The notes: a model not told the origin generated them from the letters alone. A stretch of DNA of 64,000 nt from Pseudomonadota bacterium (GCA_043818055.1 JBDRGF010000159.1:17623-81622); one strand, 5' to 3'; counted from the stretch's first letter, positions 19,060-34,213 are shown. Made by a program: numbers and translations.

Positions 19060-19079
19060 CTGGGATAGCTCGTTTCGTG

Positions 19080-19670: not shown

Positions 19671-19706
19671 ATATTAAAACACCTATGGAGGAATCGTTAA
19701 ATAATG

Positions 19707-21008
19707 TCACTGACAATTGCCATGAAGCTCTGGATACAAGGTTTTATTGTTATTTTTCTCATATTCAGCCAAAATCTGTCTGAATTCGGGAATGGTCATA
19801 CTTCCTTTCTTCTCAAGTGCAGGATAATAAAAATTCATAAAATCCGGATCATCTGCCAAAAAGCAGGCGTGATATCCTCCAAATGGAGTTTCTTTCAGAC
19901 CTCTTTCCCGTGCAACAGACAGTGGCTCCTTCATAACATTTCCCATGTAAACATGCATGTTAGCACAATTCATGACATCACCGTAGGGGGTCATATTTAT
20001 CATTTCTTTCGTCCCGGGACATCCGAACTGCTTCCCGTAATTGAAGTTCAGATGCCTGGTAACCCAGTTGTATGGTTTTATAATTTTCTCGTAATTTTTG
20101 ACATCTTCCTTGTCGAGCATAACCTCCTTGTTATGGAAATTGCCTACTCCTTTGGCAAATAGTGTGCACAGAAGCACCTGTTCCCGTTCCGCAAGCTCCA
20201 ACAACTCCCTGAAACCATCTGTATAGAGATTACCTTTGTGAACGCAGCAATTAATAACAACTTTAATACCATATTTTTTACTCAACCTGATATTTTCAAC
20301 AACCTTTTCAAAGCTCCCAGCCTTTTTTCTGAAGGCATTATGAATTTCAGGATAACCGCTGTCGAGACTATAATTGATCGTATCAACACCCAACTCGTAA
20401 GCTCTTTTGATCTTTGCTTCGTCAACAAGATAACCATTGGTGGTAATAATAATATGATTCTTCATCGGTTGCCATGCCCTGATAAACTCCTCCCAGTTTT
20501 TTACAACAAAAGGCTCTCCGCCTTCCATGCCAAACGTAGTGGCACCAAGCTTCATCGCCTCTTTCACAACTCTCGCATAATCGGAAGGTTTCATCTCCTG
20601 TCTCTTCCCCGACTCATCAATCCTTGCACAAAGACAATGATTGCAACTAAAGTTACATCTAAAGCTAACTGCAAACTCTATCCCTCTTAGAATATATTTT
20701 TTCATTCCCAGGTAGTGATAAACTTTCCCTCGGATCTCATTCCAAATAATCCTGAAGGGATAGAATGGCTTTCTCCAATGGATCCCATATTTAAAACGAA
20801 TGCGCCATAACGTAAGGAATTTTTTAATTGGATTGTATTGCCGTGTAATTATTACCCGTTTGCGTTTTGTCTGTTCTTCGGCTTCTTTCAATTTTTTCAT
20901 TATACGTCTGGACTCTTCCTGTGTTTTGGCAATCAGCTTAACATCGTCTTCAAGCGTACTAAATACCGACACCTTGTTTTGTGACGCAAATACACTACTC
21001 TCAAGCAT
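19707..21008 (-). CDS. Radical SAM enzyme with auxiliary-cluster-like C-terminus and ~100-aa N-terminal charged/coiled extension
   Basis: FRCNFSCNHC CxxxCxxC and GGEPF. C-terminal Cys cluster CPGTKEMINMTPYGDVMNC. The N-terminal extension may be an artefact of an upstream start. Confidence 0.7.
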   Translation of the reverse strand: MLESSVFASQNKVSVFSTLEDDVKLIAKTQEESRRIMKKLKEAEEQTKRKRVIITRQYNPIKKFLTLWRIRFKYGIHWRKPFYPFRIIWNEIRGKVYHYLGMKKYILRGIEFAVSFRCNFSCNHCLCARIDESGKRQEMKPSDYARVVKEAMKLGATTFGMEGGEPFVVKNWEEFIRAWQPMKNHIIITTNGYLVDEAKIKRAYELGVDTINYSLDSGYPEIHNAFRKKAGSFEKVVENIRLSKKYGIKVVINCCVHKGNLYTDGFRELLELAEREQVLLCTLFAKGVGNFHNKEVMLDKEDVKNYEKIIKPYNWVTRHLNFNYGKQFGCPGTKEMINMTPYGDVMNCANMHVYMGNVMKEPLSVARERGLKETPFGGYHACFLADDPDFMNFYYPALEKKGSMTIPEFRQILAEYEKNNNKTLYPELHGNCQ

Positions 21009-21082
21009 AAAATCGCTCCTTTTTGATCTGTAATTATAGTTTTATACTTAACCGAACACCAAGGAATTCTTCTCTCAAATTA

Positions 21083-22078
21083 TCATAACAAACCCTCTTT
21101 TCTAAGATTTTCAACTGTTTTGCTAATCGACTTTCTCCAATTGGTAATAGCGTACCCCAACTCTTTTATGGCCAATTCCGAAGAATAAAAAAGATTCTGC
21201 CGAATCATCTCTCCTACTATTTTAGTAATCGGTGTTTCTTTCTTCAGCAAATTAAAGATCAACTCAGCACCATACCCAAGCCAGGGCAGTATAAATCTCG
21301 GCAGTGGAATTTTAGGCGAAATTCCTCCGGTGGCATAGGCTATATCGCTAAAATATTCTTTAAAAGATATATTATCCCCACCTAAGATATATTTTTTTCC
21401 AGTAATACCCTTTTCATAGCATAGGAAAAGACCTCTTACTAAGTCATCTATATCTGTAAGGCAGACCCCGCCTGAAGGATATATTTTCATCTTACCTTGA
21501 GCAATAGCCTTAAAATTATCTAACTGAGTTCTCTTGATACCGTGCGATCCTATCACATTTCCGGGACAAACGATGATCGAGTCTAACCCCAAGCCAACCT
21601 CTCTAAGGACGGCCTGTTCTCCCAGATATTTTGTATAAGCGTAGGGATCTCTGTAGTTGTTAAAAACAAATTTTTCATCGGCCACTTCTCCATGTTCAGG
21701 GACACCTACAGCCGACACCGAACTGATATGGATCAGACGCAATCCTCCTTTTTCTCTGGTCATTCTCGCAACATTGCTGGCAACTGCAATGTTAATGATC
21801 TCCCTTAAACGTTGATCTCTTTTCAATGAAGAGCCACACGCGGCAAAATTATAAACAGCAACACACCCCTCCATGGCTTTAGCCAGCGCCATATTGTCAG
21901 TTAAATCTCCTTCAAAAGGAGTAAAAGAAAAACCGGTTAGGTTCTTCATTGAAGATGATTTCCGATGGAAGACAACAACCTCTACATCCTTTTCCTGTAA
22001 ATATCTGACTAAATTACTGCCAATAAATCCTGTCCCACCTATAAGTAGAATCCTATTATTATTTGTTTTTCTACCCAT
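21083..22078 (-). CDS. NAD-dependent epimerase/dehydratase (SDR family)
   Basis: ILLIGGTGFIGSNLVRYL and YAYTKYLGE YxxxK. Confidence 0.75.
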   Translation of the reverse strand: MGRKTNNNRILLIGGTGFIGSNLVRYLQEKDVEVVVFHRKSSSMKNLTGFSFTPFEGDLTDNMALAKAMEGCVAVYNFAACGSSLKRDQRLREIINIAVASNVARMTREKGGLRLIHISSVSAVGVPEHGEVADEKFVFNNYRDPYAYTKYLGEQAVLREVGLGLDSIIVCPGNVIGSHGIKRTQLDNFKAIAQGKMKIYPSGGVCLTDIDDLVRGLFLCYEKGITGKKYILGGDNISFKEYFSDIAYATGGISPKIPLPRFILPWLGYGAELIFNLLKKETPITKIVGEMIRQNLFYSSELAIKELGYAITNWRKSISKTVENLRKEGLL

Positions 22079-22086: not shown

Positions 22087-22866
22087 CTATCCCTTTATGC
22101 CTTTAATTATCATAATGGGTCTCCGCATAAAATCTGGGTTATCCATTCCAATCAAACTATCATCTTCTCTAAAAAGCTTTCTTCTATTTAGAAAGATAAA
22201 TGGTTTAATTACCAAAGATACAAACACTTTATAACACCACAGAATTAATGGTTGCTTCTTTTCTAATTTGAAGGATATGTTTTCAGAATATCTATTTTCC
22301 TCAGGTTCCGGTTTATAACCAAAAAATGTCTGCAATTTAATGATAAACATTCTTAATTGCACCAAAGATGGAATTGCTCTAATTAGTTTATATTCCTTTA
22401 TTTTCAGATTTTTTTTAACAGCCGTAATTATAAATTCTTTAGTTATTCGGCATCCATTTCCCGGGCCTAGAGGAACTAAAAGCAATAGCTCTCCATTTTT
22501 GGTCAGTAAATTGGCAAAGTTTTCTATTGCGGTTTCCGGATGCTCTATATGTTCAAGTGCAGAAAGATTAATTATTTTTGTAAAGGATAATTTGGACAAT
22601 CTCTTGGAATGTTCTCCAATACTGAGGTTGCCAAGGTGAGTATGAAGAAAAACCAGATTATTCAAGTTATATATCTCTTCATTTCTTTTTATTCTTAAAA
22701 TATCCCAATCAACACCGACCACATTAGCAACTTTCTTAGCAACCTGTGAGCCAATATAACCATCCCCACATCCCGCATCCATTATAATGTCATCTTTCTT
22801 GAATTCTATAAAATTGGGCAGAATTTTTAGTTTCCACAATACATCTAAATGATATTTTGATAACAT
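22087..22866 (-). CDS. Class I SAM-dependent methyltransferase
   Basis: IIMDAGCGDGYIGSQVAKK motif I. Confidence 0.7.
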   Translation of the reverse strand: MLSKYHLDVLWKLKILPNFIEFKKDDIIMDAGCGDGYIGSQVAKKVANVVGVDWDILRIKRNEEIYNLNNLVFLHTHLGNLSIGEHSKRLSKLSFTKIINLSALEHIEHPETAIENFANLLTKNGELLLLVPLGPGNGCRITKEFIITAVKKNLKIKEYKLIRAIPSLVQLRMFIIKLQTFFGYKPEPEENRYSENISFKLEKKQPLILWCYKVFVSLVIKPFIFLNRRKLFREDDSLIGMDNPDFMRRPIMIIKGIKG

Positions 22867-22891
22867 TTATCACCTCCAATAGCTCACAAGA

Positions 22892-24265
22892 TCACAGTTT
22901 TTCCGTCGTCCATTGGATATAATCCCTGATGGCGCCCCAATTCCTTGTTTTATAGAAGTATGTTAAGACGGATTTGACTCCAACATAAGATCTATAATGT
23001 TTAAACATTGCCCTTCTACAAAAATTATAGAGAACATTTTCGTCAAGATCTTTTCTATAGATAGAAAAATACGGATATTCTTTATCTGAGGTAAAATCAT
23101 ATTTATCCTTGCATCGTTCAAATAGTGTGCTTCCGGGCAATGTCCTCAATACCCCCCAGCTAAGAAAGTTTGCTCTGATTTCCTTTTGTAGCTGAAGGCC
23201 CATTTTTATATCTTCATCAGTTTCATCCGGGTTTCCCACCATAAAAAAAGCAAATGTCGTTATTTTAAGTTCATGGCACCACTTAAAGGCATTTCGTATA
23301 TGCTCTACGGTATAGCCTTTCCTCAATGACTTCAGAACCCTCGGCGAACCGGACTCCACGCCCAAAACTATAAAATACAAACCGGCCTTTTTCATTTTGA
23401 CCAATAGTTCCCTTGTTAAAAAATCTACCCTAGTGGTGCAGGTCCATGGCAGGTTAATTCTTTCTTTAATTAACAAATCACAAATATCAAAGGTTCTTTT
23501 TTCCAAAATGGTAAAATCATCGTCGAAAAACCTTATCTCTCTTATTGGAAGCCTCCCCTTCCAGTATTTTATCTCTTCGATAATCCGATCGGGCGACATT
23601 GATCTAAGGGTATTCTTAAAAACCGCTTTCGAACAAAAAATACATCTGCCCGGACAACCTCTTGTTGTAACCATTGTTAAGGGAATACCATACCACCCGT
23701 ATGGAGGATGAATTTTATATTTGCTCGAATCAACCTGTTCTAGGTCTGGGAATGGAAGGGTATCAAGATTCTCTATGTATTCCCGGGGGGGATTAATTAT
23801 TATCTCATCTCGTTTCCTAAAAGCAATGCCTTTTATATGATCTAACCTGTCTGATTTTAAAGATTCTACAACATCTACTATTGTATTCTCACCTTCTCCA
23901 ATCGCCACCAAATCAATGGAATCTATCTCTTGCAATACTTCCCTCGGAAGAGCTGAGGGATGCGAACCACCAACAATTATTTTTATTGTCGGAAACCATG
24001 ATTTTAATTTATTCGCCAATTCCTTAACAGTAACATATCTTCTGGTAAAAAAAGTAATCCCGATTAAGTCCGGATTATATTCCAATATCTTTTTTCTGAG
24101 CGCATAGTCTGATAATGGCTCAGCGCAAAGATCCAGTATCAACGCCTCATGATTATTAGCTTTCAGGAATGAGGATAAATACGACAGACTCAATGCTGGA
24201 AAAGGGATATTTGATTTTTCAGGCAAGGGATTTATTAATACGACTTTCATCTTATTCCTTTCCAT
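22892..24265 (-). CDS. B12-binding domain radical SAM enzyme
   Basis: TRGCPGRCIFC CxxxCxxC with an N-terminal B12-binding-like domain. Confidence 0.8.
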   Translation of the reverse strand: MERNKMKVVLINPLPEKSNIPFPALSLSYLSSFLKANNHEALILDLCAEPLSDYALRKKILEYNPDLIGITFFTRRYVTVKELANKLKSWFPTIKIIVGGSHPSALPREVLQEIDSIDLVAIGEGENTIVDVVESLKSDRLDHIKGIAFRKRDEIIINPPREYIENLDTLPFPDLEQVDSSKYKIHPPYGWYGIPLTMVTTRGCPGRCIFCSKAVFKNTLRSMSPDRIIEEIKYWKGRLPIREIRFFDDDFTILEKRTFDICDLLIKERINLPWTCTTRVDFLTRELLVKMKKAGLYFIVLGVESGSPRVLKSLRKGYTVEHIRNAFKWCHELKITTFAFFMVGNPDETDEDIKMGLQLQKEIRANFLSWGVLRTLPGSTLFERCKDKYDFTSDKEYPYFSIYRKDLDENVLYNFCRRAMFKHYRSYVGVKSVLTYFYKTRNWGAIRDYIQWTTEKL

Positions 24266-24270
24266 TAAAA

Positions 24271-25407
24271 TCAGAATAAATTATTCATTTTAATTTCATA
24301 CCCGATGTTTAATTTTTGCATGCATTGCCGACAAATATCGAATGTATTATAATTTTCCCCGGTTACAAATAAACCGCGGATTTTCTGTAATTTTCTACTA
24401 TTCCAGATATCAGATAAATTGTCTTCGTTTATATTTCCCAAAACCAATCCTTTCTCGATTTTGTGAGAGAAGGCTGTGCAACATATTGAAACATCTCCGT
24501 TTATATATACCGCCAGTTGCAACCATGGTGACATGCATAAGAAGCGCCGTCCCCTGGTGTACTTAAACCATGGAAGATAGTAGTCGGAATCCTTAAGCCG
24601 ATACCCTTTTATGGAATCCTTCTCCATTTTATTGACGCCATTTAACAAGCTGGGAAGACTGCTCTTGAGACCAATCTTTGAGGAAAGCTTCTCGGCCTTC
24701 CTTAAAGTGGCAATGATTTTTTCCAGATCATAATTCTCTCTGAACTCCCTTGCGGTTTCTTCTGTAAATTGTGAAAAGTTTACCGGAACAAAACTAACGA
24801 ATGAACTATTTAACTCTTTTGCCAGATAGACAAATGGGATAATGTCGTCTAAGTTGTTTTTCTGAATAACAAAATCCAGACGGCATATTTCTCTTTTAAC
24901 ATCAAGTTCCTTTCTAATCCTATCCAGTCGTCTGATATTACCTAATAATTGATCAAATCCATTGTTTTTCCGTATCTTTTCGTAGGTCTCCTTTGTCGCT
25001 GCATCCATGGAAAATTTGATTAAATTGATGCCATTTTTTATTAAATTGTATGCAGTTCTTTCGTCAAGCAATAGACCGTTTGTAGTTATGAATGATTTAG
25101 ATTTATTTTCGCTAGCTATCCTCACCAATTCGCAGATGTCCTTATTCATCAACGGTTCAGCGGAAATGCCACCGAATAACATCATTTTTGGCTTTATCTG
25201 CGAATACAGCTTTTCTAATGTCTTAATGCTGAGAAATTGCTTCTCAGATTGCTTAAAATATGATTGATTCCGATAACACATTTTACAGCTCAAATTGCAA
25301 ACATTAGATGTGTCTACATTCACCGCAATCGGTTGATTTAGAATCTTTTTATGTTTTAAAATCAGCGAAATGAAAGCCTTTATATATTCTGACATAAACC
25401 GTCCCAT
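24271..25407 (-). CDS. Radical SAM enzyme with SPASM/twitch C-terminal domain
   Basis: VDTSNVCNLSCKMC and C-terminal CMSPW...ICC...CRQC Cys-rich SPASM-like region. Confidence 0.8.
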   Translation of the reverse strand: MGRFMSEYIKAFISLILKHKKILNQPIAVNVDTSNVCNLSCKMCYRNQSYFKQSEKQFLSIKTLEKLYSQIKPKMMLFGGISAEPLMNKDICELVRIASENKSKSFITTNGLLLDERTAYNLIKNGINLIKFSMDAATKETYEKIRKNNGFDQLLGNIRRLDRIRKELDVKREICRLDFVIQKNNLDDIIPFVYLAKELNSSFVSFVPVNFSQFTEETAREFRENYDLEKIIATLRKAEKLSSKIGLKSSLPSLLNGVNKMEKDSIKGYRLKDSDYYLPWFKYTRGRRFLCMSPWLQLAVYINGDVSICCTAFSHKIEKGLVLGNINEDNLSDIWNSRKLQKIRGLFVTGENYNTFDICRQCMQKLNIGYEIKMNNLF

Positions 25408-25409
25408 AA

Positions 25410-26498
25410 TTATTCAATTGTTATTGAAGAAAACTTTCCTTTTTTTAATTTATTCGCTATTAACAAGGCTATTTTTTCAAACCTGTATCCTAGAAAGTTT
25501 GTAACTGCATCAGTCAAACTAAGCCTTATGCCCGAAGGAATACCTACTATAGGGGGAGTGCCCAAGACAATACAATTACCGCATAGTGGCAACAGATCAA
25601 GATAATCTCCATCGAGCATTGATTGTCTTAATTTAAGCATTTTATTGCTGTTCCAAATATCTATTAATTTGTTTTCCTTGATATTTCCTATAACATATTC
25701 ATGATTGGTATCATAAACACATGGCACAACATCGCCATTCCAGGTGATACATACTGTACTCCACAATCGCGAGCACGGCGGAAAAAAGCGGTCATGTTTT
25801 CTAGGGTTAAAGGTATCTACACCCTCAAAAGTGCTACCCCAGGTTGAAACCTCCCTTAAACGGACCTCATCAATAAGACCATTGAATTTTTTCAAAAAAA
25901 CCTCTTTTTCTTCTCCACTACAATCCCCTATTTCGAGCATTAAGATGGATAATACGGTATAGGGAGATTTTTTTTCTTTTCTCTTTTTCAATTCTAGGAA
26001 GTAAAAAATGTTATCAAGGGTTTTTTCAAAATCAGCACCGACCCTTGCCTTTTCATAGGTTTCCTTATTAAACCCGTCAAAAGCAAAGCTTATACTGGCT
26101 ATTCCGGAATACAATAACTGCTCCACCTTTTCCTTAGTCAAGAGGGTAGCATTTGTATTTAGCAAGATCTTTATGTCATTAGAACTTGCATATCTTACCA
26201 TATCGAAGAATTGAGGGTGAAGCAGAGACTCGCCCCCAACTGCCAGGATGATTGCAGATGTATAATCCTTAACCTCATCTATTATCTTCTTGAACAGACC
26301 ATAATCCATATAGCCCTTTTTAACACTTGTCATTCCAGTCCCCGTAGGACACATAATACATTTCAAGTTGCAATGGTTGGTTGGCTCTAACCAAATAAAA
26401 CTAGGGGGATTATCTAAATGCACCTTTTTCCTGTGATAATTTTTTAAGGCCCTTATATTATTGAATAGTATTTTAATTTTTTTTATCATATCTGACAT
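25410..26498 (-). CDS. Radical SAM enzyme with SPASM/twitch C-terminal domain
   Basis: EPTNHCNLKCIMC and C-terminal CSRLW...PC...CGNC. Paralog of the preceding gene. Confidence 0.8.
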   Translation of the reverse strand: MSDMIKKIKILFNNIRALKNYHRKKVHLDNPPSFIWLEPTNHCNLKCIMCPTGTGMTSVKKGYMDYGLFKKIIDEVKDYTSAIILAVGGESLLHPQFFDMVRYASSNDIKILLNTNATLLTKEKVEQLLYSGIASISFAFDGFNKETYEKARVGADFEKTLDNIFYFLELKKRKEKKSPYTVLSILMLEIGDCSGEEKEVFLKKFNGLIDEVRLREVSTWGSTFEGVDTFNPRKHDRFFPPCSRLWSTVCITWNGDVVPCVYDTNHEYVIGNIKENKLIDIWNSNKMLKLRQSMLDGDYLDLLPLCGNCIVLGTPPIVGIPSGIRLSLTDAVTNFLGYRFEKIALLIANKLKKGKFSSITIE

Positions 26499-26512
26499 TT
26501 ATTAATTACTAA

Positions 26513-27964
26513 CTAACCGCATATCCGATGGTTTATCATAGCTACTTTTAAAGCTTCAAAATAATTTGTATAGGACTTCTTGGTCTTTTGAGTATAAAGT
26601 TGTCTCAGCAATACATATGGACGAAAAACCAACATTTCTAAGAGGAAGAGGCTAAAGCGTGGATACGTGAATAGATTAAGGTTAGCATTCTTTTGCCCCA
26701 ACGAGAGAAACTTTGATCTATAGTATAATAATTCATTTCTCGATAGAGTTGACCGAAAATTGGGATTTTCCGTTAACGAAAACGATAGATCATCCAACAT
26801 CTCTCCATCTTGCTCATTATAGTAGGAAGTACCTGGCATAGGCATATAATAGTTTACTGTTACAAAAGTTGGTTTGACCTCTTTCAACAATTCTACGGTT
26901 TGGTCCATATCGCGTTTGGTCTCTCCAGGAAGGCCTATGATAAGAAATATATATGTATATATACCAGCGTCGTTGATAGCCTTGATTGCCGTTTTAACCT
27001 GTTCAATTGTAATCCCCTTATTCATATCAATAAGCATTCTTGGAGACCCAGATTCAACCCCTAGTGCCAATTGCATAAAGCCCGCTTCCTTCATCAATTT
27101 CAACGTTTCTTTTGAACCTACCTTATCTACTCTTGTCTGTGCATATATCTTCAATTTTATCTTCTCTTTTAATAGTCCTTCACAGAATTCCGTAACGCGT
27201 CTATCAGTGAAATAAAAGAGGTCGTCCAGAAGGACAAGTCCCTTAATCTTATATCTGTCTATCTGCCATTTGATCTCATCTATTATTTCGCCGATAGGCC
27301 TTTCGCGGTACACGTTCCTTATTGGCTCAGTACAAAACTTACATCTAAATGGACATCCTCTATTGGCCATCAGAAAACCCGTCTTGATGAAATGCCCAGG
27401 TATACCACCCAGCTTGATATTTGTATAGTGAACATAGTCCACTAAATCAACTGCGGGATATAAAAGATTATAGAGATCCTTCGGTTCTCTTCGAGATGTT
27501 TGGAAAACCTTCCGTTCTTTCAAGAAGGCAATGCCTTTTATGTCTTCCAATGTCTTACTTGAATCATAAGCATTTATGAGTTCAACCGCTGTTTCTTCAC
27601 CTTCGCCAATTACTACCACATCGGCTGAATAGCTTAGATATTTTTCAGGTGAAAAAGAGGGGTCTTTTCCACCGCATATGATGATTTTATCCTTGGTAGT
27701 CTCTCTTACCTTTTTTATTATCCTTGAGGCAACCTTTCTATTCCAACTTATGACTCCTAAACCAATGAAATCGGGATCAAAAATGTAGAGCTCCTCCCAC
27801 AATTTCTTATTTTTTCGGGTATTAAAATCTTCATCGATAAATTCGATTATCTTCACCTCATGTTGTGCTCTTCTAAGATAACTAGCTACATATAGTAAAC
27901 CCAAGGCAGGACGCCATCCTTTTCTAGGATTTATAAGTAATATTTTCTTTCTCATATTATACAA
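26513..27964 (-). CDS. B12-binding domain radical SAM enzyme
   Basis: NRGCPFRCKFC CxxxCxxC with an N-terminal B12-binding-like domain. Confidence 0.8.
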   Translation of the reverse strand: MYNMRKKILLINPRKGWRPALGLLYVASYLRRAQHEVKIIEFIDEDFNTRKNKKLWEELYIFDPDFIGLGVISWNRKVASRIIKKVRETTKDKIIICGGKDPSFSPEKYLSYSADVVVIGEGEETAVELINAYDSSKTLEDIKGIAFLKERKVFQTSRREPKDLYNLLYPAVDLVDYVHYTNIKLGGIPGHFIKTGFLMANRGCPFRCKFCTEPIRNVYRERPIGEIIDEIKWQIDRYKIKGLVLLDDLFYFTDRRVTEFCEGLLKEKIKLKIYAQTRVDKVGSKETLKLMKEAGFMQLALGVESGSPRMLIDMNKGITIEQVKTAIKAINDAGIYTYIFLIIGLPGETKRDMDQTVELLKEVKPTFVTVNYYMPMPGTSYYNEQDGEMLDDLSFSLTENPNFRSTLSRNELLYYRSKFLSLGQKNANLNLFTYPRFSLFLLEMLVFRPYVLLRQLYTQKTKKSYTNYFEALKVAMINHRICG

Positions 27965-28967
27965 CCTGTTTTATCCGCAAGAAATCGCATCTTCTGCAGA
28001 AGTCAAATTCTTCCTGGTGTTTCCTGAGATAATTGAATTTCTCACCACACCATACTTCTCTTATGTCCTTTTCCAGCATGTTGCCCATATTTAGTTCTTT
28101 AGAAAAACAACAAGGATAGACATCGCCATTTTGAGCAATAAATACGAAATCTTGAAATCTGTAACAATATGTATCGAGTCTTAGAAGAAACTTGAAATAC
28201 TTGTAAAAAAACCCTTTCCATCCATCGAATATTTGATCTTGGAGATAGTCAATTCTTATCTTGTATCTCTTTCTTAACCTAGCAAATTCATTAAATATCT
28301 CTCTTTCTTCTATCAAGTTAGGCCGTTTCATGTCAGGGACAAACCTTAAATCAACGCGAACGACATTGATCCTATCAACACAATTTTCAGCACCCCACTT
28401 GATTATCTCATAAACATCTTGCACTTTATCGCTAAACAGAATGGGCTGAAGCGTAACTCTTGGTGTTAAAGAACCCAGTTCCTTTTTCATCTCAATCAAT
28501 CTTTTTATGTTCCTTAGCGCTTTTACATTTGGATGGGATATTTCACTGTTTTCCTTCAGACTTTCAATGGAAAACGAAATCCAGTCCAGTTTTGACCGAA
28601 TTACTTTCTCCATCTTCTCTTCATCTTCTAACAACAAACCATTTGTCGTTATCTGAACTTCCAAACCTCTTTCCTTACAGTATCTTATGGCCTCATAAAA
28701 TCTAGGGTATGTTAATGTTTCTCCAATTCCCACCAAAATCACAGTCTTTACCGCTTCAAGTCTATCTACCACTTTCTTGAATAACTCGTAATCCATATGA
28801 GTTCGTTCGATATCAATATAATTTCTGATGCACATCTTACAATCTAAATTACAACAATTGGTAATACATATCTGTGCAAAACGAGGTGAGCTCTCTGGTA
28901 TATGCAAGATTTTCCTTATCGCTGTAGAGATAAAGCTTCTACTCATATTAATAAACAAGCCTCTCAT
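27957..28967 (-). CDS. Radical SAM enzyme with SPASM/twitch C-terminal domain
   Basis: ICITNCCNLDCKMC and C-terminal PCC...CRRCDF. Confidence 0.75.
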   Translation of the reverse strand: MRGLFINMSRSFISTAIRKILHIPESSPRFAQICITNCCNLDCKMCIRNYIDIERTHMDYELFKKVVDRLEAVKTVILVGIGETLTYPRFYEAIRYCKERGLEVQITTNGLLLEDEEKMEKVIRSKLDWISFSIESLKENSEISHPNVKALRNIKRLIEMKKELGSLTPRVTLQPILFSDKVQDVYEIIKWGAENCVDRINVVRVDLRFVPDMKRPNLIEEREIFNEFARLRKRYKIRIDYLQDQIFDGWKGFFYKYFKFLLRLDTYCYRFQDFVFIAQNGDVYPCCFSKELNMGNMLEKDIREVWCGEKFNYLRKHQEEFDFCRRCDFLRIKQVV

Positions 28968-30012
28968 CTAAATTCTCCTGACTTTGCTGGGCACGCTTGA
29001 TTAGCTCTTTATTAAAGATATAATAAAGATAGCTAATGAACGCTACAAAAATTAAAGACGCCTCACCAAGTATTCTCGAAACCACTACAAAAATCCCAGC
29101 CTCAGGCGCATTAACACCCATCAATACCAAAACCCCAAACCAACTGACATCAAGTGATCCAAGAGCCCCTGGAATAAATGTTGCAATAATTATGACCTGA
29201 ACCACGGCAGAGCCTAATAAGATATAGTAAAAAGGGATGTTGATCTGTAAAGCTAAAATAATAATATAAACCCGTAATGTTATGCATAATTGTTTCAAAC
29301 AGGAGTAAAAAAATAATCTAATGGCAATACTTCTACTAAATGGGTTGAGTTTTTCGGACATTATAGAATTGTTCTGAAACCTTCTTTTGAAAAAGAAAAC
29401 CTTGGAAACGATCTTAAGTAAAAACCTATAAACCCGTATTATCAATCCGAATATCATTCCATTTTTATAAACAATCAAACCAAACAATGAGAGGATCGAC
29501 ACAACAATAAATGTAACCGAGGCCTCTAAAGATAAAATGTCAACAAAAAAAAGCAATGATGGGATAACCAGTAAAATGAGTATTAATAAATCAAATAATT
29601 GTTCGATAAAGATTGCCAGTACCCCTTTGTCTGCTGGTATTTTATGTAATAACTTCATGGAAATAGTTTTAAGGCCATAATTTCCACTTTGTGGTATTAT
29701 AGTATTCAATATCATAGCTATTGCACAATTGTATAAAAAATAACCTTTGGGGATTTTACTAATGTCCACTAAATTATTTAAAATCATTTTCCATTTTAAA
29801 CCTGAAATACTAAGAATGAAAAAATTTGTAATTACTATAGCAATGAGATAATAATATTTAATATTACGAAGATTATTTATAACCATTTTTGGTGAAATGC
29901 CGGCGAGCCTTATCATCAAGACAATCAAAAAAAAACCCAGAACAGCTAAAGATGAATTAATGATAATTTTATAATGTTGTTTAAAAAAAATTTTACCTGA
30001 AATTAATTTCAT
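28948..30012 (-). CDS. UPF0104 / lysyl-PG-synthase-TM-like 'flippase-like' membrane protein
   Basis: 354 aa with about 8 TM segments and the N-terminal pattern typical of the YbhN/UPF0104 family. Confidence 0.5.
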   Translation of the reverse strand: MKLISGKIFFKQHYKIIINSSLAVLGFFLIVLMIRLAGISPKMVINNLRNIKYYYLIAIVITNFFILSISGLKWKMILNNLVDISKIPKGYFLYNCAIAMILNTIIPQSGNYGLKTISMKLLHKIPADKGVLAIFIEQLFDLLILILLVIPSLLFFVDILSLEASVTFIVVSILSLFGLIVYKNGMIFGLIIRVYRFLLKIVSKVFFFKRRFQNNSIMSEKLNPFSRSIAIRLFFYSCLKQLCITLRVYIIILALQINIPFYYILLGSAVVQVIIIATFIPGALGSLDVSWFGVLVLMGVNAPEAGIFVVVSRILGEASLIFVAFISYLYYIFNKELIKRAQQSQENLDERLVY

Positions 30013-30041
30013 TCTTTATCCCCATCTCAACACCTATCCAA

Positions 30042-31301
30042 TCACTTGTTCAACCTCATTCTGAAAAAATCTTTTACACTGCTGGCAATGTAGCGAATGT
30101 CTTTTTCAGTCAAGCTGGGATGGCAAGGCAAGTAGATAATTTTGCCGTTAAGCTTACTGGCATTAGGAAAAACACTGTTAACATAAGGTTGAAAACGCTT
30201 CATCTGAGTGATATCTTCGGCCGATTCATCTTGGGCATCAATTTTGTTTTTTAGAAGATATTCTTGAAGGTCTTTTTTTCTTTCCGTCCAAATAGCATAG
30301 TGGACACAAACATGTTCTCTATCGGTTGGATCGGATGGGATATGAAGCTCTTTGATACTTTTTAGTTCATTATTTAGAATTTTGAGATACTCTCGACGCC
30401 GTTGATTAGTTGAGTCAATCGTCATAATCTGGCGCAGTCCCATCCTTGCCTGAATACTATACATATCTATCTTGAAATCTTCTGGGACGCCGTTGTAGTA
30501 AGGTTTTTTGATTCGAAACCACGAAGCAAACCTTTCATCTTCTTCTATCTGATATCTGTAACTAAGTGGAAAGAGAGTAAATCTATGTATCAAAGGCGTA
30601 TTGAGAAATTTGAGCAAGCAGCCTTTGAAAATACCATGGTAAAGATTCTTCACCGAAATAGTTTTGAAGTCTCGTTTCAACTCACGTAGTCGTTCAATAA
30701 AGATTTGGTCGTTGGAAGTGACCATGCCTCCACCAAATCCGTAAAAGGATTTTCCGTATCCAAAACTGAAAGCACCAATGTCAAAAGAACCAACTCGCCT
30801 ATCCTGAAACCGGCTACCACAAGAGCGAGCACAGTCTTCAATAACACGGAGATTATACTTCCGAGCTACATCCATAACAGCCTTTATATCGGCAGGAAGA
30901 CCGTTAAGATGCGCGAGCAAAATGACTCGGGTTTTGGAGGTGATAGCATTTTCTATTTTTGAGCTATCAATATTCAATGTTTCAAAGTCAACATCAACAA
31001 ATATTGGCTTCAATCCGGCCAAGAGAACCACAGCTGCATCCACCCAAAAGGTAAATGCAGGAAGAATAACCTCATCACCATCCTCTAAATTCAAGGCCTT
31101 AAGGCAAAAGTAGAGCGCGCTGCGGCATTTTGGAAAGGCTACTGCTTCTCTGGTGCCAATAAATCGGGCGTAGGCCCTTTCAAATTCAGATAACAATAAC
31201 CGACCCCCGGCCATAGATGGATTGAGAACGCGAAACAGGGCTGACATTACCTCGACTGTTTTAAGATCAACCCAGACCCTAGGATATGCCTTAAACATCA
31301 T
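30042..31301 (-). CDS. DegT/DnrJ/EryC1/StrS-family PLP-dependent aminotransferase (second copy)
   Basis: DVARKYNLRVIEDCARSCGSRFQDRRVGSFDIGAFSFGYGKSF covers the lysine-bearing region. Confidence 0.8.
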   Translation of the reverse strand: MMFKAYPRVWVDLKTVEVMSALFRVLNPSMAGGRLLLSEFERAYARFIGTREAVAFPKCRSALYFCLKALNLEDGDEVILPAFTFWVDAAVVLLAGLKPIFVDVDFETLNIDSSKIENAITSKTRVILLAHLNGLPADIKAVMDVARKYNLRVIEDCARSCGSRFQDRRVGSFDIGAFSFGYGKSFYGFGGGMVTSNDQIFIERLRELKRDFKTISVKNLYHGIFKGCLLKFLNTPLIHRFTLFPLSYRYQIEEDERFASWFRIKKPYYNGVPEDFKIDMYSIQARMGLRQIMTIDSTNQRRREYLKILNNELKSIKELHIPSDPTDREHVCVHYAIWTERKKDLQEYLLKNKIDAQDESAEDITQMKRFQPYVNSVFPNASKLNGKIIYLPCHPSLTEKDIRYIASSVKDFFRMRLNK

Positions 31302-31423
31302 TCACCAACCATTTCTTCACATTTCTGATAATAAAATTGTCCCAAATCCAGACCCTTCTCTTCCATTTACGGTTTATCAATCAATATACCATCACGCTAT
31401 TTTACTCTCCAACAACCTATCTA

Positions 31424-31546
31424 TTACACCATGTGATATATCACGTACTTCCGTGCCGCTTCTGCTGACATTACCAATCTAGATTCGATTTCTTCGACCA
31501 CTTGCCGTTTAAACCCTTTCTCAAATTTCCTTCTCGTCACTCCCAT
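31424..31546 (-). pseudogene. Remnant of an IS3-family transposase orfA (N-terminal HTH only)
   Basis: A 40-aa ORF MGVTRRKFEKGFKRQVVEEIESRLVMSAEAARKY resembles the IS3/IS911 OrfA N-terminus, and no remainder of the IS is present. Confidence 0.4.
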
Positions 31547-31736
31547 CACAAATCTCCCCTCTAGCTAAGTTCTCTGAGATTTGCAACATCCTTTCTCATT
31601 TTTTAGTCCAAAATCTCAACCCATAAGTATGCATATCAAAGTAAACCAAGAGGCAATATCGAGTTCGAGGCACACGAAACTGAATTGATCAATACTACAT
31701 GCATTTTTTCACTTTAGAAAAATATTTATTCAAGCG

Positions 31737-31907
31737 ATGACGTAACGGCACTGCCTCCATTACCAAAAATGAAGATGTTTACCGCATTTTCATACGCTAG
31801 AATAAGTTCAGAAATAAAACCCTTAAACTCTCTCTCATCAACTTTATCAAAGATGTTGATCAGTTCGGTAAAATATTGTCTCAAGAAGACCTCTTTCATA
31901 ATAAACT
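31737..31907 (-). pseudogene. gmhA: Truncated gmhA (N-terminal 56 aa of sedoheptulose-7-P isomerase)
   Basis: MKEVFLRQYFTELINIFDKVDEREFKGFISELILAYENAVNIFIFGNGGSAVTSSLE* parallels the N-terminus of the intact gmhA at 19080..19670. It sits directly downstream of hddA. Confidence 0.5.
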
Positions 31908-31908
31908 A

Positions 31909-32877
31909 TTACTCGCGGAATAACAATTTGGAACCTTCCGAATCGATGCTAAATGGTAGCGACCTACACCCCATTTTCTGTTCCAATTGTCCATGATCCA
32001 CCGCATAAACAAGCATAAAACCAGCCCCGCCAGCGCCCAGAAGCTTACCACCCGACGCTCCACCCTCTATTGCCTTTTTGTACATTGCATCGATCTCATG
32101 ATTAGAAATACCTGACGCAAGTTCCCTTTTGTAACACCACCCTTTATTTAAATATTCTCCGACTAAATCGTACTTACCCTTCGAGAGTTTGTCCTTTAGA
32201 TCATCTGCCATGGAAGCCATGTCTTTCACGCACAGCATCATTGAATCCTGAGATAAGTTATCTCTTTGTCTGGAAAGAATATCTGCCGATCGCCTCTCTC
32301 CACCCGTGTAATATAAACGTAAACATTCTTCAAACTTCTTAATAGTAACGATGTCCAATTCGATCGGATACACATTTACAGTTTCATCCTTATTAAATCT
32401 AATATAATTAAGTCCTCCGTAGGCAACGGCATATTGGTCCTGTTTTCCAACAGGATCTCCAAGAACATCCATCTCTATTTCACATGATTCCCTAGCCAAT
32501 CGTTCCTTTGAAACTTCAATTCCCCTATAAGCATAGAGAGCATTCAAAAGGCCGACTGTAAACGAACTGGATGAACCAAGGCCAGTACCCTTAGGGACAT
32601 CAGCAAAGCTTGCTATCTCGATACCTTTATCAATTTCCACTTTTTCCAAACAAGCCTTAACAATCGGATGCTTAATATCTTTAACGTTGGAAACATCTTC
32701 GGTTTTAGAATATTTTACGCGTATCTTGTCATGAAAGTAAGGATGAATCACTATGTACATGTACTTTCTAATCGCAGCACTCACAACAGATCCATAGCCA
32801 CTCTTCGAATAAAATTCTCTCAAATCGCTTCCTCCACCGACAAAACTCACTCTAAAAGGAGTTCTCGTTATTATCAT
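31909..32877 (-). CDS. hddA: GHMP-family D-glycero-alpha-D-manno-heptose 7-phosphate kinase
   Basis: MIITRTPFRVSFVGGGSD...PKGTGLGSSSSF GHMP motifs. Confidence 0.7.
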   Translation of the reverse strand: MIITRTPFRVSFVGGGSDLREFYSKSGYGSVVSAAIRKYMYIVIHPYFHDKIRVKYSKTEDVSNVKDIKHPIVKACLEKVEIDKGIEIASFADVPKGTGLGSSSSFTVGLLNALYAYRGIEVSKERLARESCEIEMDVLGDPVGKQDQYAVAYGGLNYIRFNKDETVNVYPIELDIVTIKKFEECLRLYYTGGERRSADILSRQRDNLSQDSMMLCVKDMASMADDLKDKLSKGKYDLVGEYLNKGWCYKRELASGISNHEIDAMYKKAIEGGASGGKLLGAGGAGFMLVYAVDHGQLEQKMGCRSLPFSIDSEGSKLLFRE

Positions 32878-32878
32878 A

Positions 32879-34213
32879 CTATATCGCCATCCTACTGTTT
32901 AAAATCACATTGACCGCTTCTTCCAAATTATCGCAGATAAAATCTGGGTTTATTGAAGTATTTTGATTTTTATCATCGTTATTTTTCCGAAGTAATATAG
33001 ATCTCAACCCTGCATTAATAGCGGCTTGAATATCTATCACTGAATCACCTATCATCCATGAGGATACAAGATCGATGTTATATTGGCTAGCCGCTTTCAT
33101 TATCATTCCCGTCTTCGGTTTTCTACAATCACAGACAATCTTGAACAAAGGATTTTCTTCAGGATATCCCTTATCGGGATGATGCGGACAGAAATAAATC
33201 TCGTCAACATATACCCCGTTTTTACCCAGCAAGGTCTCAAACTTATCGTGAATACTTTTTAGCGTTTCAAGAGAACAAAGATTTCTGGCTACGACTGGCT
33301 GATTCGTAACCACAATTGACAGATAGCCAGATTCGTTGATACGCTTGATGGCCGGTGTTGAAAACGGTAACAACTCGAGATCCTCCGACCTATGCAACAG
33401 ATCTACCTCCTTTACCAAGGTGCCGTCTCTATCCAAAAAGATCGCCGGTCTCTTATTTTTCTTTGAAAGTCTTTTAATTTTACCGTTCGCAAAATCTGAC
33501 TTGACCTTTTCCAGCCTATCGACCGTTCCTACATCTTTGATATACTCAGTGGTTTTGTATCCGCAAAGTTTTTCGAAATTCAGCATGCGAGGAAAGACAT
33601 CTTTAACAAAATCCGAAGCGACACCTTTGCTGATGTATTTAAAAATCCGCGGCGAAAGAACGTACATTGCGGCATTGATCTGATTTGGATAGCATTCCCT
33701 ATCGACGCTCTTTGGCAAAAAACCGACTATCTCCGATTTTACGTCTGTCAACACGATATCGCTGTCATATGGATGATCGTTGGGGTGAACAACAAGAGTT
33801 GCTGCTGCGCATTTTTCTTTATGATATTCAAAAAGATCGTCAAGATCCAGATCGAACATGACATCGCCATATGCAAGAAGAAAGTCCTCATCTATCTCAT
33901 TTTCCAGCGCCTTCAAGCAGCCCGATGTCCCCATTGGCTTATTTTCCAGATAGTGTCTAATATCGATTCCGTGTTCGCTACCGTTGCCAAAATAATCTTC
34001 AATCACATTTCCCATGTATCCTGAAAGAATGATCACTTCCTTTATCCCATGCCTTCTCATGACGTCGATCTGATGCTCGAGTATCGGCTTGCCGGCAATT
34101 TTCAGCATCGGTTTAGGGCAATCGAATGTCAAAGAATGAAGACGCTCCCCACGTCCTCCTGCCAGTATCACTGCTTTGCGAACAGAATGTTGTAACCGAA
34201 CTAAGCTTCTCAT
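32879..34213 (-). CDS. Bifunctional sugar-1-phosphate nucleotidyltransferase (HddC-like) / HAD D,D-heptose-1,7-bisphosphate phosphatase (GmhB-like)
   Basis: N-terminal AVILAGGRGERL...KPML NTP-transferase domain. C-terminal FLDRDGTL...VTNQ HAD motifs I/II of the GmhB type. Confidence 0.7.
   Translation of the reverse strand: MRSLVRLQHSVRKAVILAGGRGERLHSLTFDCPKPMLKIAGKPILEHQIDVMRRHGIKEVIILSGYMGNVIEDYFGNGSEHGIDIRHYLENKPMGTSGCLKALENEIDEDFLLAYGDVMFDLDLDDLFEYHKEKCAAATLVVHPNDHPYDSDIVLTDVKSEIVGFLPKSVDRECYPNQINAAMYVLSPRIFKYISKGVASDFVKDVFPRMLNFEKLCGYKTTEYIKDVGTVDRLEKVKSDFANGKIKRLSKKNKRPAIFLDRDGTLVKEVDLLHRSEDLELLPFSTPAIKRINESGYLSIVVTNQPVVARNLCSLETLKSIHDKFETLLGKNGVYVDEIYFCPHHPDKGYPEENPLFKIVCDCRKPKTGMIMKAASQYNIDLVSSWMIGDSVIDIQAAINAGLRSILLRKNNDDKNQNTSINPDFICDNLEEAVNVILNSRMAI

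Follow-up and report, generated by a model that had tools for sequence, protein, structure and literature searches.

The closest described counterparts of the genes analyzed here come from antibiotic, hopanoid and glycan pathways. The radical SAM (rSAM) enzyme BtrN and the Btr aminotransferase belong to butirosin biosynthesis and AprD4 to that of apramycin, GenK-type enzymes are B12-dependent C-methylases, and HpnL is a UPF0104-type protein. We know of no rSAM enzyme in the tailoring of the heptoses of capsules and S-layer glycans, where NAD(P)-dependent dehydrogenases, epimerases and reductases are used. The UPF0104/MprF family has been tied to glycosylation loci by earlier prediction (PMC5898192; bioRxiv 10.1101/2022.03.11.483950); its members occur in such settings as AglD fusions and in archaeal gene neighborhoods, and were predicted to flip lipid-linked saccharides (PMC5898192). 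Our reading of a DUF2304 protein paired with a PpgS-like GT2 draws on the literature on GacI/GacJ/GacL and PpgS/Rv3632 (bioRxiv 10.1101/180810).

The eight-gene block at 22087–31301 lies on the minus strand of the window (the entire 64,000 nt stretch of Pseudomonadota DNA analyzed), and is the center of a larger, old and widely shared gene set. All eight ORFs of the initial annotation were recovered in place, and its gene labels agree with the Pfam domains of all eight proteins (Table 1). The order of transcription is DegT aminotransferase, MprF-like protein, SPASM-type rSAM, B12-rSAM, two SPASM-type rSAMs, B12-rSAM and methyltransferase, with spacings of +29, −20, −8, +14, +2, +5 and +25 nt, a range of −20 to +29 nt in place of the gaps of 3–15 nt first described. 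Of the two overlaps described, that at 28948–28967 (20 nt) stands, but that at 27957–27964 exists only with a TTG start for B12_483. Alignment of ortholog N-termini (MRKKILLINPRKGW) favors the ATG at 27955, which is likely to be the true start and would turn the SP336/B12_483 junction into TAA-T-ATG, with a 1 nt spacer and no overlap. The spacing of the genes is compatible with translational coupling. Scans for promoter-like and terminator-like sequences returned no more than background, every terminator-like site being intragenic.

Table 1. Features of the block, the surrounding cassette and its flanks, in order of transcription.
Feature	Coordinates	Strand	Basis or position
PpgS/GacI-like GT2	34611-35363	-	Pfam/NCBIfam
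DUF2304 protein	34217-34585	-	Pfam/NCBIfam
HddC-like nucleotidyltransferase fused to GmhB-like phosphatase	32879-34213	-	Pfam/NCBIfam
HddA-like GHMP kinase	31909-32877	-	Pfam/NCBIfam
SIS/GmhA-like gene remnant, N-terminal, 57 codons	31726-31899	-	within the 607 nt kinase-AT419 gap
AT419: DegT-family PLP sugar aminotransferase, first gene of the block	30042-31301	-	Pfam DegT/DnrJ/EryC1, 242 bits
LPGTM354: stand-alone MprF-type (UPF0104/PplT) flippase-like membrane protein	28948-30012	-	LPG_synthase_TM
SP336: rSAM, four-cysteine twitch-type C-terminal domain	27957-28967	-	Pfam Radical_SAM + SPASM
B12_483: B12-binding-domain rSAM	26513-27964	-	Pfam B12-binding + Radical_SAM
SP362: twitch-type rSAM, most conserved marker of the cassette	25410-26498	-	Pfam Radical_SAM + SPASM
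SP378: twitch-type rSAM, accessory, paired with B12_457	24271-25407	-	Pfam Radical_SAM + SPASM
B12_457: B12-binding-domain rSAM, accessory	22892-24265	-	Pfam B12-binding + Radical_SAM
MT259: class I SAM-dependent methyltransferase, last gene of the block	22087-22866	-	Pfam Methyltransf_12/31/23
SDR331: HpnA-like SDR	21083-22078	-	Pfam/NCBIfam
rSAM433: 433-aa rSAM	19707-21008	-	Pfam/NCBIfam
SIS196: GmhA-like	19080-19670	-	Pfam/NCBIfam
DUF218 protein, membrane-anchored	18403-19059	-	Pfam/NCBIfam, TM segments
B12_495: HpnJ-like B12-rSAM	16925-18412	-	Pfam/NCBIfam
GT2_330: GT2, two C-terminal TM helices	15930-16922	-	Pfam/NCBIfam, TM segments
MT211: methyltransferase	15262-15897	-	Pfam/NCBIfam
unk533: GT-C fold membrane glycosyltransferase, family without a Pfam model	13648-15249	-	directly after MT211

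The block forms the core of a minus-strand cassette of roughly 20 kb (34213–15262) that contains seven of the eight rSAM genes of the window. Orthologs of the genes of its downstream half (15262–22078) are 51–69% identical across loci, and the trio B12_495–GT2_330–MT211 is kept in comparison loci L015, L017, L022 and L023. The HddA- and HddC/GmhB-like activation genes are also found in L015, L017, L020, L022 and L023; in L020 and L023 the cassette likewise has a GT2 + DUF2304 pair at its flank. The SIS gene remnant upstream of AT419 shares 35% identity over 51 aa, including GNGGSA, with an SIS gene at the same position in L020 (kinase-SIS-DegT); it is short and was not recognized by Pfam. With its gene order shuffled, the cassette recurs in Scalindua/Brocadiales, Omnitrophica, Magnetococcales and Desulfobacterales, and further carriers include Desulfobacula phenolica and a Brocadiales-type metagenome contig; these are unrelated anaerobic lineages, and the MprF-like protein recurs within the cassette. 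No description of it was found in the literature. In the view of L019 there is a CMP-sugar-type cytidylyltransferase and the heptose genes are absent, while the distant variant L025 has glycosyltransferases between its rSAM genes and no DegT gene, so the cassette may act on more than one kind of substrate.

The initial annotation took five rSAM genes of the block (three SPASM-type, two B12) to be the product of repeated in-locus duplication of a methylation/redox module. Genes of the same families are indeed neighbors here, in a roughly alternating arrangement, and tandem duplication does occur in the cassette elsewhere: SP336-type genes form adjacent doublets in L015, L021, L022 and L023, and a second B12_483-type gene is present in L015 and L023. 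However, paralog identity within the window is only 24–33% (24–25% among the SPASM-type trio, 32.6% for the B12 pair) against 53–69% to the 1:1 ortholog that each of the five has in L020. Most also have orthologs in five to eight further loci from other phyla, ortholog identity being 41–69% in L015, L017–L019 and L021–L023. The phylogeny that had been proposed as a check, in the form of neighbor-joining (NJ) trees, places the paralogs in separate deep clades; by identity, orthology and trees they are not each other's closest relatives, which is the result that the annotation itself had named as contradicting duplication. Because SP378 and SP336 fall apart in the trees, as do B12_457 and B12_483, the SP336–B12_483 and SP378–B12_457 pairs were not duplicated as a unit. 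SP336 forms a clade of its own, with orthologs 41–53% identical that often stand as tandem pairs in other loci, while SP378 has an ortholog (57%) only in L020, again adjoining that of B12_457 (64%, L020 only); B12_483 has orthologs (57–65%) in L015, L018, L020 and L023. SP362 has more than 100 relatives at 40–71% identity in many phyla, and representatives of about 1,189 50%-identity clusters match it at E ≤ 1e-30; its in-window paralogs gave E values of ~1e-23 to 1e-24 in a small local BLAST, and more than 1,000 database clusters thus appear closer to it than its neighbors, a comparison that is indicative only because the E-value scales differ. The alternation of SPASM and B12 modules survives as recurring neighbor pairs (the order SP336–B12_483 occurs in the window, L018 and L021, and SP378–B12_457 in the window and L020), but not as pairs that are copies of one another. 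Every paralog is old and has its own orthology, and an origin of the five genes by repeated duplication in this locus is very unlikely.

The CX3CX2C motif is present in all five rSAM proteins of the block (residues 39–46 in SP336). The Pfam SPASM matches underlying the label "SPASM-rSAM" are genuine, but the full motif CX2CX5CX3C is absent from SP336, SP362 and SP378, which carry only C-X17-C...C-X2-C, the four-cysteine twitch pattern of BtrN (C268/C286/C324/C327, C242/C260/C306/C309 and C291/C309/C359/C362, respectively). For each of the three C-terminal domains the best match among solved structures is likewise BtrN, and the core of SP362 resembles DesII and BlsE. The nearest solved structures are OxsB, AprD4, 9ccb and TokK for B12_483 (all ≤63 bits) and 9ccb, AprD4, TokK, OxsB and CysS for B12_457 (all ≤68 bits), the latter reaching no NCBIfam cut-off, and methylation by the B12 enzymes is an assumption. 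Enzymes with SPASM and B12 domains are typical RiPP maturases, and many weak NCBIfam matches were to peptide maturases. For a role in RiPP maturation, however, the spacers of the block (≤29 nt) leave no space for a precursor gene, no protease or leader-binding domain was seen, the twitch is that of a sugar enzyme, and the conserved parts of the cassette include the sugar-activation and DegT genes; we regard it as extremely improbable.

AT419 keeps the PLP lysine (FGYGK, aligned with FYPTK of 7b0d), and among solved structures it best matches scyllo-inositol and 2-deoxy-scyllo-inosose transaminases, QdtB and perosamine synthase. Its orthologs (50–68% identical) are present in all nine comparison loci with 20 kb of context except the truncated L024, while MT259 has an ortholog in none of the comparison loci and is specific to this locus. 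In both the window and L020, the best NCBIfam matches are to the HddA, HddC, GmhA and GmhB families. Curated NCBIfam equivalog cut-offs were not reached by any rSAM, kinase, isomerase or transferase, so that the substrate and the individual reactions are predictions. With moderate confidence, we propose that the product of this ancient, horizontally spread cassette is a heavily modified amino sugar for a cell-surface glycan of anaerobic bacteria, made by tailoring a nucleotide-activated sugar, most likely a GDP-heptose-type sugar derived from sedoheptulose 7-phosphate. The GmhA-, HddA-, GmhB- and HddC-like enzymes would supply the NDP-sugar, a secondary alcohol of which would be oxidized to a ketone by the HpnA-like SDR and/or a BtrN-like twitch rSAM and then aminated by AT419, following the logic of BtrN/BtrS and DesI. 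The remaining twitch rSAMs could carry out oxygen-independent dehydrogenation, epimerization or deamination, and the B12-domain rSAMs could C-methylate unactivated carbons or rearrange or dehydrate the ring (compare OxsB, AprD4 and HpnJ); MT259 may add a locus-specific N- or O-methyl group.

The nearest characterized enzymes (BtrN, the Btr aminotransferases, AprD4, OxsB, BlsE and DesII) act in aminoglycoside and nucleoside antibiotic pathways, and GT2_330, which gave generic GT2 matches only, has as its best NCBIfam match the mycofactocin glycosyltransferase MftF and lies next to a small methyltransferase gene. These similarities would suit a diffusible aminoglycoside- or aminocyclitol-like small molecule as the product, rather than a structural glycan. 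The comparison loci, however, show no resistance, regulator or exporter genes of the antibiotic-cluster type; surface-glycan genes (GT2 + DUF2304, TPR-containing and multi-TM proteins, Wzx, rml, GT-C) flank the cassette repeatedly, and its distribution over uncultured anaerobes of many phyla resembles that of a cell-envelope trait, making a small-molecule product improbable.

LPGTM354 matches PF03706 with 94.9 bits (cut-off 33.4) and TIGR00374 with 63 bits, also above cut-off, and the only credible Foldseek matches to its AF2 model (pLDDT 78.6) are the MprF structures 9j8s and 9j8q (prob 1.00, TMq 0.53). Rather than an incidental transporter, it is cassette-internal in six other loci (L018, L019, L021–L024), often with overlapping start and stop codons. 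Its subfamily is small (only 10 matches at E ≤ 1e-5), and members with examined gene context were seen only inside the rSAM cassette. It is absent from the 20 kb views of L015, L017 and L020, and so is not essential to the pathway. A UPF0104 protein was initially thought unusual in a sugar-nucleotide pathway, but such a protein in a glycosylation locus has published precedents (PMC5898192); the accompanying idea of a lipid-linked substrate holds up better, as the neighboring genes fit a lipid carrier. The GacI/GacJ-like pair, the membrane GT2 and the GT-C enzyme all support a lipid-carrier stage; the DUF218 protein has an N-terminal membrane anchor. In the proposed amino sugar pathway, GT2_330 or the GacI/GacJ-like pair would load the finished or part-finished sugar onto polyprenyl phosphate, and the HpnJ-like enzyme encoded beside GT2_330 might act on the lipid-linked sugar. 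Transmembrane movement would then fall to the MprF-like protein. Specific to this locus and outside the cassette elsewhere, unk533 is likely the periplasmic transferase here, and in this genome would join the sugar to a rhamnose-containing, Wzx-exported polymer.

The HpnA, HpnJ and UPF0104 matches would also suit a lipid head-group pathway. In such a scheme the cassette would modify the polar head group of a membrane lipid (hopanoid-like or another glycolipid), with GT2_330 placing a sugar on the lipid, the rSAM enzymes remodeling it at the membrane and the MprF-like protein flipping it (compare HpnI/HpnK/HpnJ). B12_495 is closest to HpnJ (391 bits) and SDR331 to HpnA (197 bits), rSAM433 weakly matches HpnH, the UPF0104 family includes lipid flippases, GT2_330 is membrane-bound, and dxs heads the operon. 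Yet all Hpn matches fall under the curated cut-offs, and the cassette brings with it a sugar-1-phosphate nucleotidyltransferase, a kinase, an isomerase and a DegT aminotransferase. In the window it lies within an rml/Wzx/GT locus with a GT-C enzyme, and neither squalene-hopene cyclase nor other lipid-synthesis genes were seen in any of the loci; we consider a head-group role unlikely.

Among known systems, the hopanoid side-chain genes (HpnA/I/J/K/L) share with the cassette an HpnJ-like B12-rSAM beside a membrane GT2, an HpnA-like SDR and a UPF0104 protein, but the scores fall short of the cut-offs (391 against 578 for HpnJ, 197 against 368 for HpnA), and the loci examined have sugar-nucleotide genes and no hopanoid core genes. 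All four enzyme types of the GDP-D-glycero-alpha-D-manno-heptose pathway (GmhA, HddA, GmhB, HddC) are present as remote homologs, all of which score under the curated equivalog cut-off. LPGTM354 shares Pfam family and fold with MprF/PplT (UPF0104, PF03706), including the archaeal AglD fusions, but unlike MprF it stands alone, with no aminoacyl-PG synthase domain. As in the three-component glycosylation systems (ArnC/ArnEF/ArnT, GtrA/GtrB/Gtr(type), GacI/GacJ/GacK/GacL and PpgS/Rv3632/Rv3779), a GT2 + DUF2304 pair, a candidate flippase and a GT-C enzyme occur in one operon and adjoin rml genes. The candidate flippase, however, is an MprF-type UPF0104 protein instead of GtrA, ArnE/F or Wzx, a long rSAM pathway would supply the sugar, the GT-C family has no Pfam model, and the machinery might carry a sugar other than that of the cassette. 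With aminoglycoside tailoring the cassette shares a C-X17-C...C-X2-C twitch rSAM beside a DegT aminotransferase, and the B12-rSAMs of that pathway act on sugars, but the similarity is remote (≤75 bits), and the cassette combines its seven rSAM genes with its own NDP-sugar activation genes and is found in anaerobic Gram-negative envelope loci rather than in actinomycete antibiotic clusters.

The eight-gene block is part of a larger cassette whose gene order is shuffled between loci and which, in the window, extends from 34213 to 15262. Gene context was retrieved for ten loci carrying relatives of SP362, a SPASM-type radical SAM (rSAM) protein of the block, and all proteins of nine of these were compared with those of the window. 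Most loci encode the DegT aminotransferase AT419, SP362, a second SPASM-type protein (SP336), rSAM433 (of a 430-aa class of rSAM proteins without a SPASM domain), an HpnA-like SDR enzyme, the B12-binding rSAM protein B12_483 and a DUF218 protein. The cassette further has a constant set of three genes, for an HpnJ-like B12-rSAM (B12_495), a 330-aa GT2 glycosyltransferase (GT2_330) and a 205-aa methyltransferase, and it includes the sugar-activation genes. Among the loci compared, the adjacent pair of SP378 (SPASM-type) and B12_457 (B12-rSAM) occurs only in the window and in L020, and the methyltransferase MT259 only in the window; a B12-rSAM orthogroup of about 470 aa that is common in the other loci is missing from the window. 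There is a cultured carrier, Desulfobacula phenolica (L017). The tenth locus, L025, is a Falkowbacteria-type CPR contig in which three SPASM-type and four B12 rSAM genes (929-19864) are interleaved with GT2 and GT4 glycosyltransferase and methyltransferase genes, and the view shows neither a DegT gene nor sugar-activation genes; clear orthology to the window is limited to its SP362 relative (40% identity), and it was left out of the orthology argument.

The eight block genes were recovered at the positions proposed in the initial annotation, with domain labels that agree with Pfam, and they belong to a long series of genes on the minus strand between about 47.7 and 1.1 kb. Their spacings, in transcription order, are +29, -20, -8, +14, +2, +5 and +25 nt, and not the 3-15 nt first described. 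The overlap at 28948-28967 corresponds to the -20 nt spacing between SP336 and the UPF0104 membrane protein LPGTM354. The other overlap, of 8 nt (27957-27964), exists as annotated but needs a TTG start; ortholog N-termini favor the ATG at 27955, giving a TAA-T-ATG junction between SP336 and B12_483. Promoter-like and terminator-like scans of the locus gave background levels only, with every terminator-like site intragenic, and so carry no information on operon structure. The spacing is compatible with a single transcript with coupled translation across the block, which is plausible. An Rfam scan at gathering thresholds detected neither a cobalamin nor a SAM riboswitch, its sole match being a tRNA.

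Positions of the block genes and of other features of the window
Feature	Positions	Strand	Basis	Context
AT419, DegT aminotransferase	31301-30042	minus	Pfam	block, first in transcription order
LPGTM354, LPG_synthase_TM protein	30012-28948	minus	Pfam	block, second
SP336, SPASM-type rSAM	28967-27957	minus	Pfam	block, third
B12_483, B12-rSAM	27964-26513	minus	Pfam	block, fourth
SP362, SPASM-type rSAM	26498-25410	minus	Pfam	block, fifth
SP378, SPASM-type rSAM	25407-24271	minus	Pfam	block, sixth
B12_457, B12-rSAM	24265-22892	minus	Pfam	block, seventh
MT259, methyltransferase	22866-22087	minus	Pfam	block, eighth
TylC3-type NDP-hexose C-methyltransferase	12374-13597	minus		second amino-sugar pathway
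Second DegT aminotransferase	11274-12377	minus		second amino-sugar pathway
Small cupin/RmlC-like protein	10822-11277	minus		second amino-sugar pathway
Wzx flippase	6318-7844	minus		after second amino-sugar pathway
HicB-like antitoxin	43768-43971
23S rRNA-intervening-sequence protein	44834-45151
AlbA_2/HATPase_c_4 regulator, apparently split	45285-46626
Lone C-terminal fragment of another AlbA_2/HATPase_c_4-type regulator	41939-42427

The alternation of SPASM-type and B12-binding genes had been read as iterative duplication within the locus, a reading that is refuted because the paralogs are not each other's closest relatives. Pairwise identity is 24-25% among the three SPASM-type proteins and 32.6% between B12_457 and B12_483, and each has its own ortholog in L020 (B12_483 64%, SP362 69%, SP336 53%, SP378 57%, B12_457 64%), as do AT419 (68%), the SDR enzyme (57%), the DUF218 protein (55%) and rSAM433 (63%). 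In neighbor-joining trees, each of the window's three SPASM-type and four B12 proteins has a deep clade of its own, which includes sequences from other phyla; these trees, built without bootstrap or outgroups, were read for clade membership only, and the identity values independently support the same grouping. A search with SP362 returned a 100% match (an NCBI entry from a Pseudomonadota MAG) and more than 100 proteins at 40-71% identity, with relatives in Brocadiales/Scalindua, Magnetococcales, Omnitrophica, Desulfobacterales, Acidobacteriota, Magnetobacterium and a Falkowbacteria-type CPR bacterium; a scan of a genome-contig collection with SP362 gave only relatives of 24-36% identity. When 1.84 billion representative proteins were searched exhaustively, 1,189 clusters matched SP362 at E<=1e-30, as against about 1e-23 to 1e-24 for the in-window paralogs in a small local BLAST, a comparison across different scales that is indicative only. 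Recent tandem paralogs are ruled out by the identity values, the one-to-one orthologs and the clade separation, the cluster matches being an indication in the same direction. Judged by sequence, the paralogs are old and not local duplicates. Tandem duplication is seen elsewhere in the family: L015 and L021-L023 carry SP336-type or B12_483-type genes in duplicate.

All five rSAM proteins of the block match PF04055 (64-99 bits; cut-off 29.5) and carry a CX3CX2C motif (residues 39, 43, 37, 204 and 204). The SPASM subfamily has two auxiliary [4Fe-4S] clusters, and twitch-type rSAM enzymes, which are BtrN-like, have one, with a shortened SPASM domain. SP336, SP362 and SP378 match the Pfam SPASM model at 52-61 bits, but the CX2CX5CX3C portion of the seven-cysteine SPASM motif is present in none of the three; each has just four patterned C-terminal cysteines, C-X17-C...C-X2-C (C268/C286/C324/C327, C242/C260/C306/C309 and C291/C309/C359/C362, respectively). 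The SPASM label holds for the domain model and not for the full motif. The four-cysteine arrangement is the twitch pattern of BtrN, an anaerobic 2-deoxy-scyllo-inosamine dehydrogenase, and BtrN is the best solved match to the C-terminal domain of all three. By motif they are twitch-type enzymes, with auxiliary-cluster binding predicted. Their rSAM cores give weak matches to DesII, BlsE and GDGT-MAS.

B12_483 and B12_457 match PF02310 (70-72 bits; cut-off 32.1) as well as PF04055, and so have the N-terminal B12-binding domain and rSAM core that characterize cobalamin-dependent (class B) rSAM methyltransferases. The nearest solved relatives of the B12 proteins are AprD4, OxsB, TokK, CysS and 9ccb, all remote (<=75 bits). 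TokK and CysS are methylases, and AprD4 and OxsB are not. Because the similarities are remote, methylation is only one possibility beside dehydration and ring rearrangement. The equivalog model for HpnJ, the rSAM enzyme of hopanoid ring contraction (TIGR03471, at least 577.6), was not reached by B12_495 (391), B12_457 (180) or B12_483 (126), and none of the cassette rSAM proteins reached the cut-off of any curated NCBIfam family. AT419 scores 242 bits against PF01041 and retains the PLP lysine; when AT419 is aligned with 7b0d and 7n63, this residue falls on their Schiff-base lysine. Inosose and NDP-ketosugar transaminases are the enzymes nearest to AT419, which attained no NCBIfam equivalog cut-off.

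The sugar-activation genes encode an HddA-like kinase, an HddC-like transferase fused to a GmhB-like phosphatase, and a GmhA-like isomerase. They are remote relatives of the four enzymes of the GDP-D-glycero-alpha-D-manno-heptose pathway, which are the best or near-best NCBIfam matches, all under the cut-offs (HddA 156/600, GmhB 158/178, GmhA 95/276 and HddC 92/300 bits), and the activation genes of L020 show the same pattern. The Desulfobacterales version in L019 has a CMP-sugar-type cytidylyltransferase (CTP_transf_3, 4175-4978) with no heptose-type activation genes in view, and the activated sugar at the start of the pathway may differ between versions of the cassette. In the window locus, the intact SIS gene is at 19080-19670. 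A 57-codon remnant of an SIS/GmhA-like gene (31726-31899) lies in the 607 nt gap between the GHMP kinase gene and AT419 (31302-31908, minus strand), at the position of the intact SIS gene in L020, and the gap looks like a rearrangement scar. A 40-codon ORF near the remnant has only a sub-threshold HTH match, and an IS3 transposase remnant in the gap was not confirmed, Pfam giving only a sub-threshold Brinker-type HTH match (E ~1e-3).

LPGTM354 (354 aa; PF03706 flippase domain at 94.9 bits, cut-off 33.4) is a membrane domain alone: the C-terminal aminoacyl-phosphatidylglycerol synthase domain of MprF is absent, and the model for bifunctional MprF gives 22 bits where 600 are required. Its AlphaFold model (pLDDT 78.6) matched MprF only among solved structures (9j8s, 9j8q). 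There are ten close relatives at E<=1e-5, and the three whose context was examined (L022, L023, L024) are all inside the cassette, as are more distant homologs in L018, L019 and L021. Genes for a methyltransferase, the UPF0104 protein and a B12-rSAM usually follow one another in that order, and most of these loci show overlaps of about 4-20 nt. The UPF0104 protein is not in the views of L015, L017 and L020. Since homologs sit inside the same cassette in six other loci, the UPF0104 protein is a recurrent but non-universal member, and this placement, with its overlapping neighbors, counts against an unrelated, separately transcribed transporter.

A PpgS/GacI-like GT2 and DUF2304 gene pair (34217-35363, minus strand) precedes the cassette directly after rmlB, and also flanks it in two other phyla (L020, 1-577; L023, 20039-21011). 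The DUF2304 protein scores 72.5 bits (cut-off 25.5) and its GT2 is PpgS-like at 94 bits (cut-off 370). The DUF2304 proteins GacJ and Rv3632 activate polyprenyl-phosphate sugar synthases, and GacL is a GT-C enzyme that uses the polyprenyl-phosphate sugar product (bioRxiv 10.1101/180810); the window's DUF2304 protein, a small membrane protein, resembles GacJ and Rv3632. GT2_330 has two C-terminal TM helices, and the DUF218 protein an N-terminal anchor as in ElyC and SanA. Comparison with solved structures did not assign GT2_330 to the ArnC/GtrB type. A GT-C fold transferase, of the kind used by three-component transmembrane glycosylation systems, is encoded as unk533 (13648-15249), a protein that is missing from the other loci and was rejected as a cassette member. 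A role for UPF0104 proteins as flippases of lipid-linked saccharides was predicted earlier for archaeal glycosylation (PMC5898192), and such proteins have been found fused to glycosyltransferases and methyltransferases (bioRxiv 10.1101/2022.03.11.483950), making LPGTM354 less unusual in a sugar locus than the initial annotation held. Its proposal of a lipid-linked or membrane-associated substrate is reasonable for the delivery stage, because of the GT2/DUF2304 pair, the membrane segments of GT2_330 and the DUF218 protein, and the UPF0104 literature.

Beyond gene content, orthology, cassette recurrence, fold assignments and motif types, which are established, we infer the following route as the most likely one. 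An NDP-heptose-type sugar would be oxidized and then aminated, and next modified by the twitch and B12 rSAM enzymes; a membrane GT2 would load it onto polyprenyl phosphate, the UPF0104 protein would flip the lipid-linked sugar and, in the window's genome, the GT-C enzyme would add it to a rhamnose-containing, Wzx-dependent polymer. The rmlABCD, Wzx and several GT2 genes share the operon with the cassette. That the product is a small-molecule, aminoglycoside-like compound seems distinctly improbable, and a RiPP pathway very unlikely. An Hpn-type pathway to a lipid head group would suit the HpnJ-, HpnA- and UPF0104-like proteins, but is weakened by the presence of sugar-nucleotide genes and the absence of lipid-synthesis genes, and we consider it unlikely. 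A more adventurous form of the polyprenyl-linked sugar route, which we hold to be unlikely, has a product of an undescribed kind: a heptose-derived amino sugar with several C-methyl or C-alkyl groups added by radical chemistry, its ring possibly contracted to a carbocycle by the HpnJ-like enzyme. Part of the synthesis would take place at the membrane, on an intermediate linked to polyprenyl phosphate, with a stand-alone MprF-type protein as the flippase for this glycolipid. If true, an rSAM pathway would for the first time be seen to act on a sugar bound to a lipid carrier, and a bacterial non-MprF UPF0104 protein would have its first assigned cargo.

The surrounding locus has several further features. 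G+C is 0.33-0.40 across it, compared with 0.45-0.48 in the 50-64 kb flank, and a tRNA gene (52768-52840) adjoins the UDP-glucose dehydrogenase gene at its upstream edge; the tRNA and the drop in G+C would fit an island acquired by horizontal transfer. The same operon has, at 7844-13597 (minus strand), a second amino-sugar pathway of conventional type, which includes three SDR enzymes besides the proteins in the table. The far end of the locus has a fourth gene for a B12-binding rSAM protein (477 aa; 1152-2585, minus strand), which adjoins two GT2 genes and the gene for a 583-aa methyltransferase; this rSAM protein is only 20-26% identical to the other three, and its nearest tree neighbor is a protein in L017. 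Directly upstream of rmlA are dxs and an FAD oxidase gene (38792-41918, minus strand), an unusual beginning for a polysaccharide operon. The FAD oxidase exceeds the cut-off for L-2-hydroxyglutarate oxidase (332 vs. 299 bits), and the 3' end of its gene overlaps the start of rmlA by 4 nt. Fragments of toxin-antitoxin systems and regulators are abundant at 41939-49083 within the polysaccharide locus; besides the last four entries of the table, they include a fused MNT/HEPN protein and a HepT and MNT pair.

The duplication story that gave the block its appeal is wrong, and the cassette itself is worth experimental work, to which the cultured Desulfobacula phenolica gives access. The pathway is conserved in anammox bacteria, Omnitrophica, magnetotactic bacteria and sulfate reducers, which suggests that a complex surface sugar is made there by a route independent of oxygen. 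Solving the pathway would reveal new rSAM reactions on carbohydrates and could explain unusual, heavily modified glycans of anaerobes. It would also supply a cargo that can be tested for UPF0104/PplT membrane proteins, which are widespread but poorly understood. Seven to nine rSAM enzymes in one sugar pathway is exceptional: a literature search found no description of the cassette or gene combination and no sugar pathway of comparable rSAM density, and we know of none. The component families are all known; the novelty lies in a sugar pathway that is conserved, dense in rSAM enzymes and equipped with a UPF0104 subfamily of its own.
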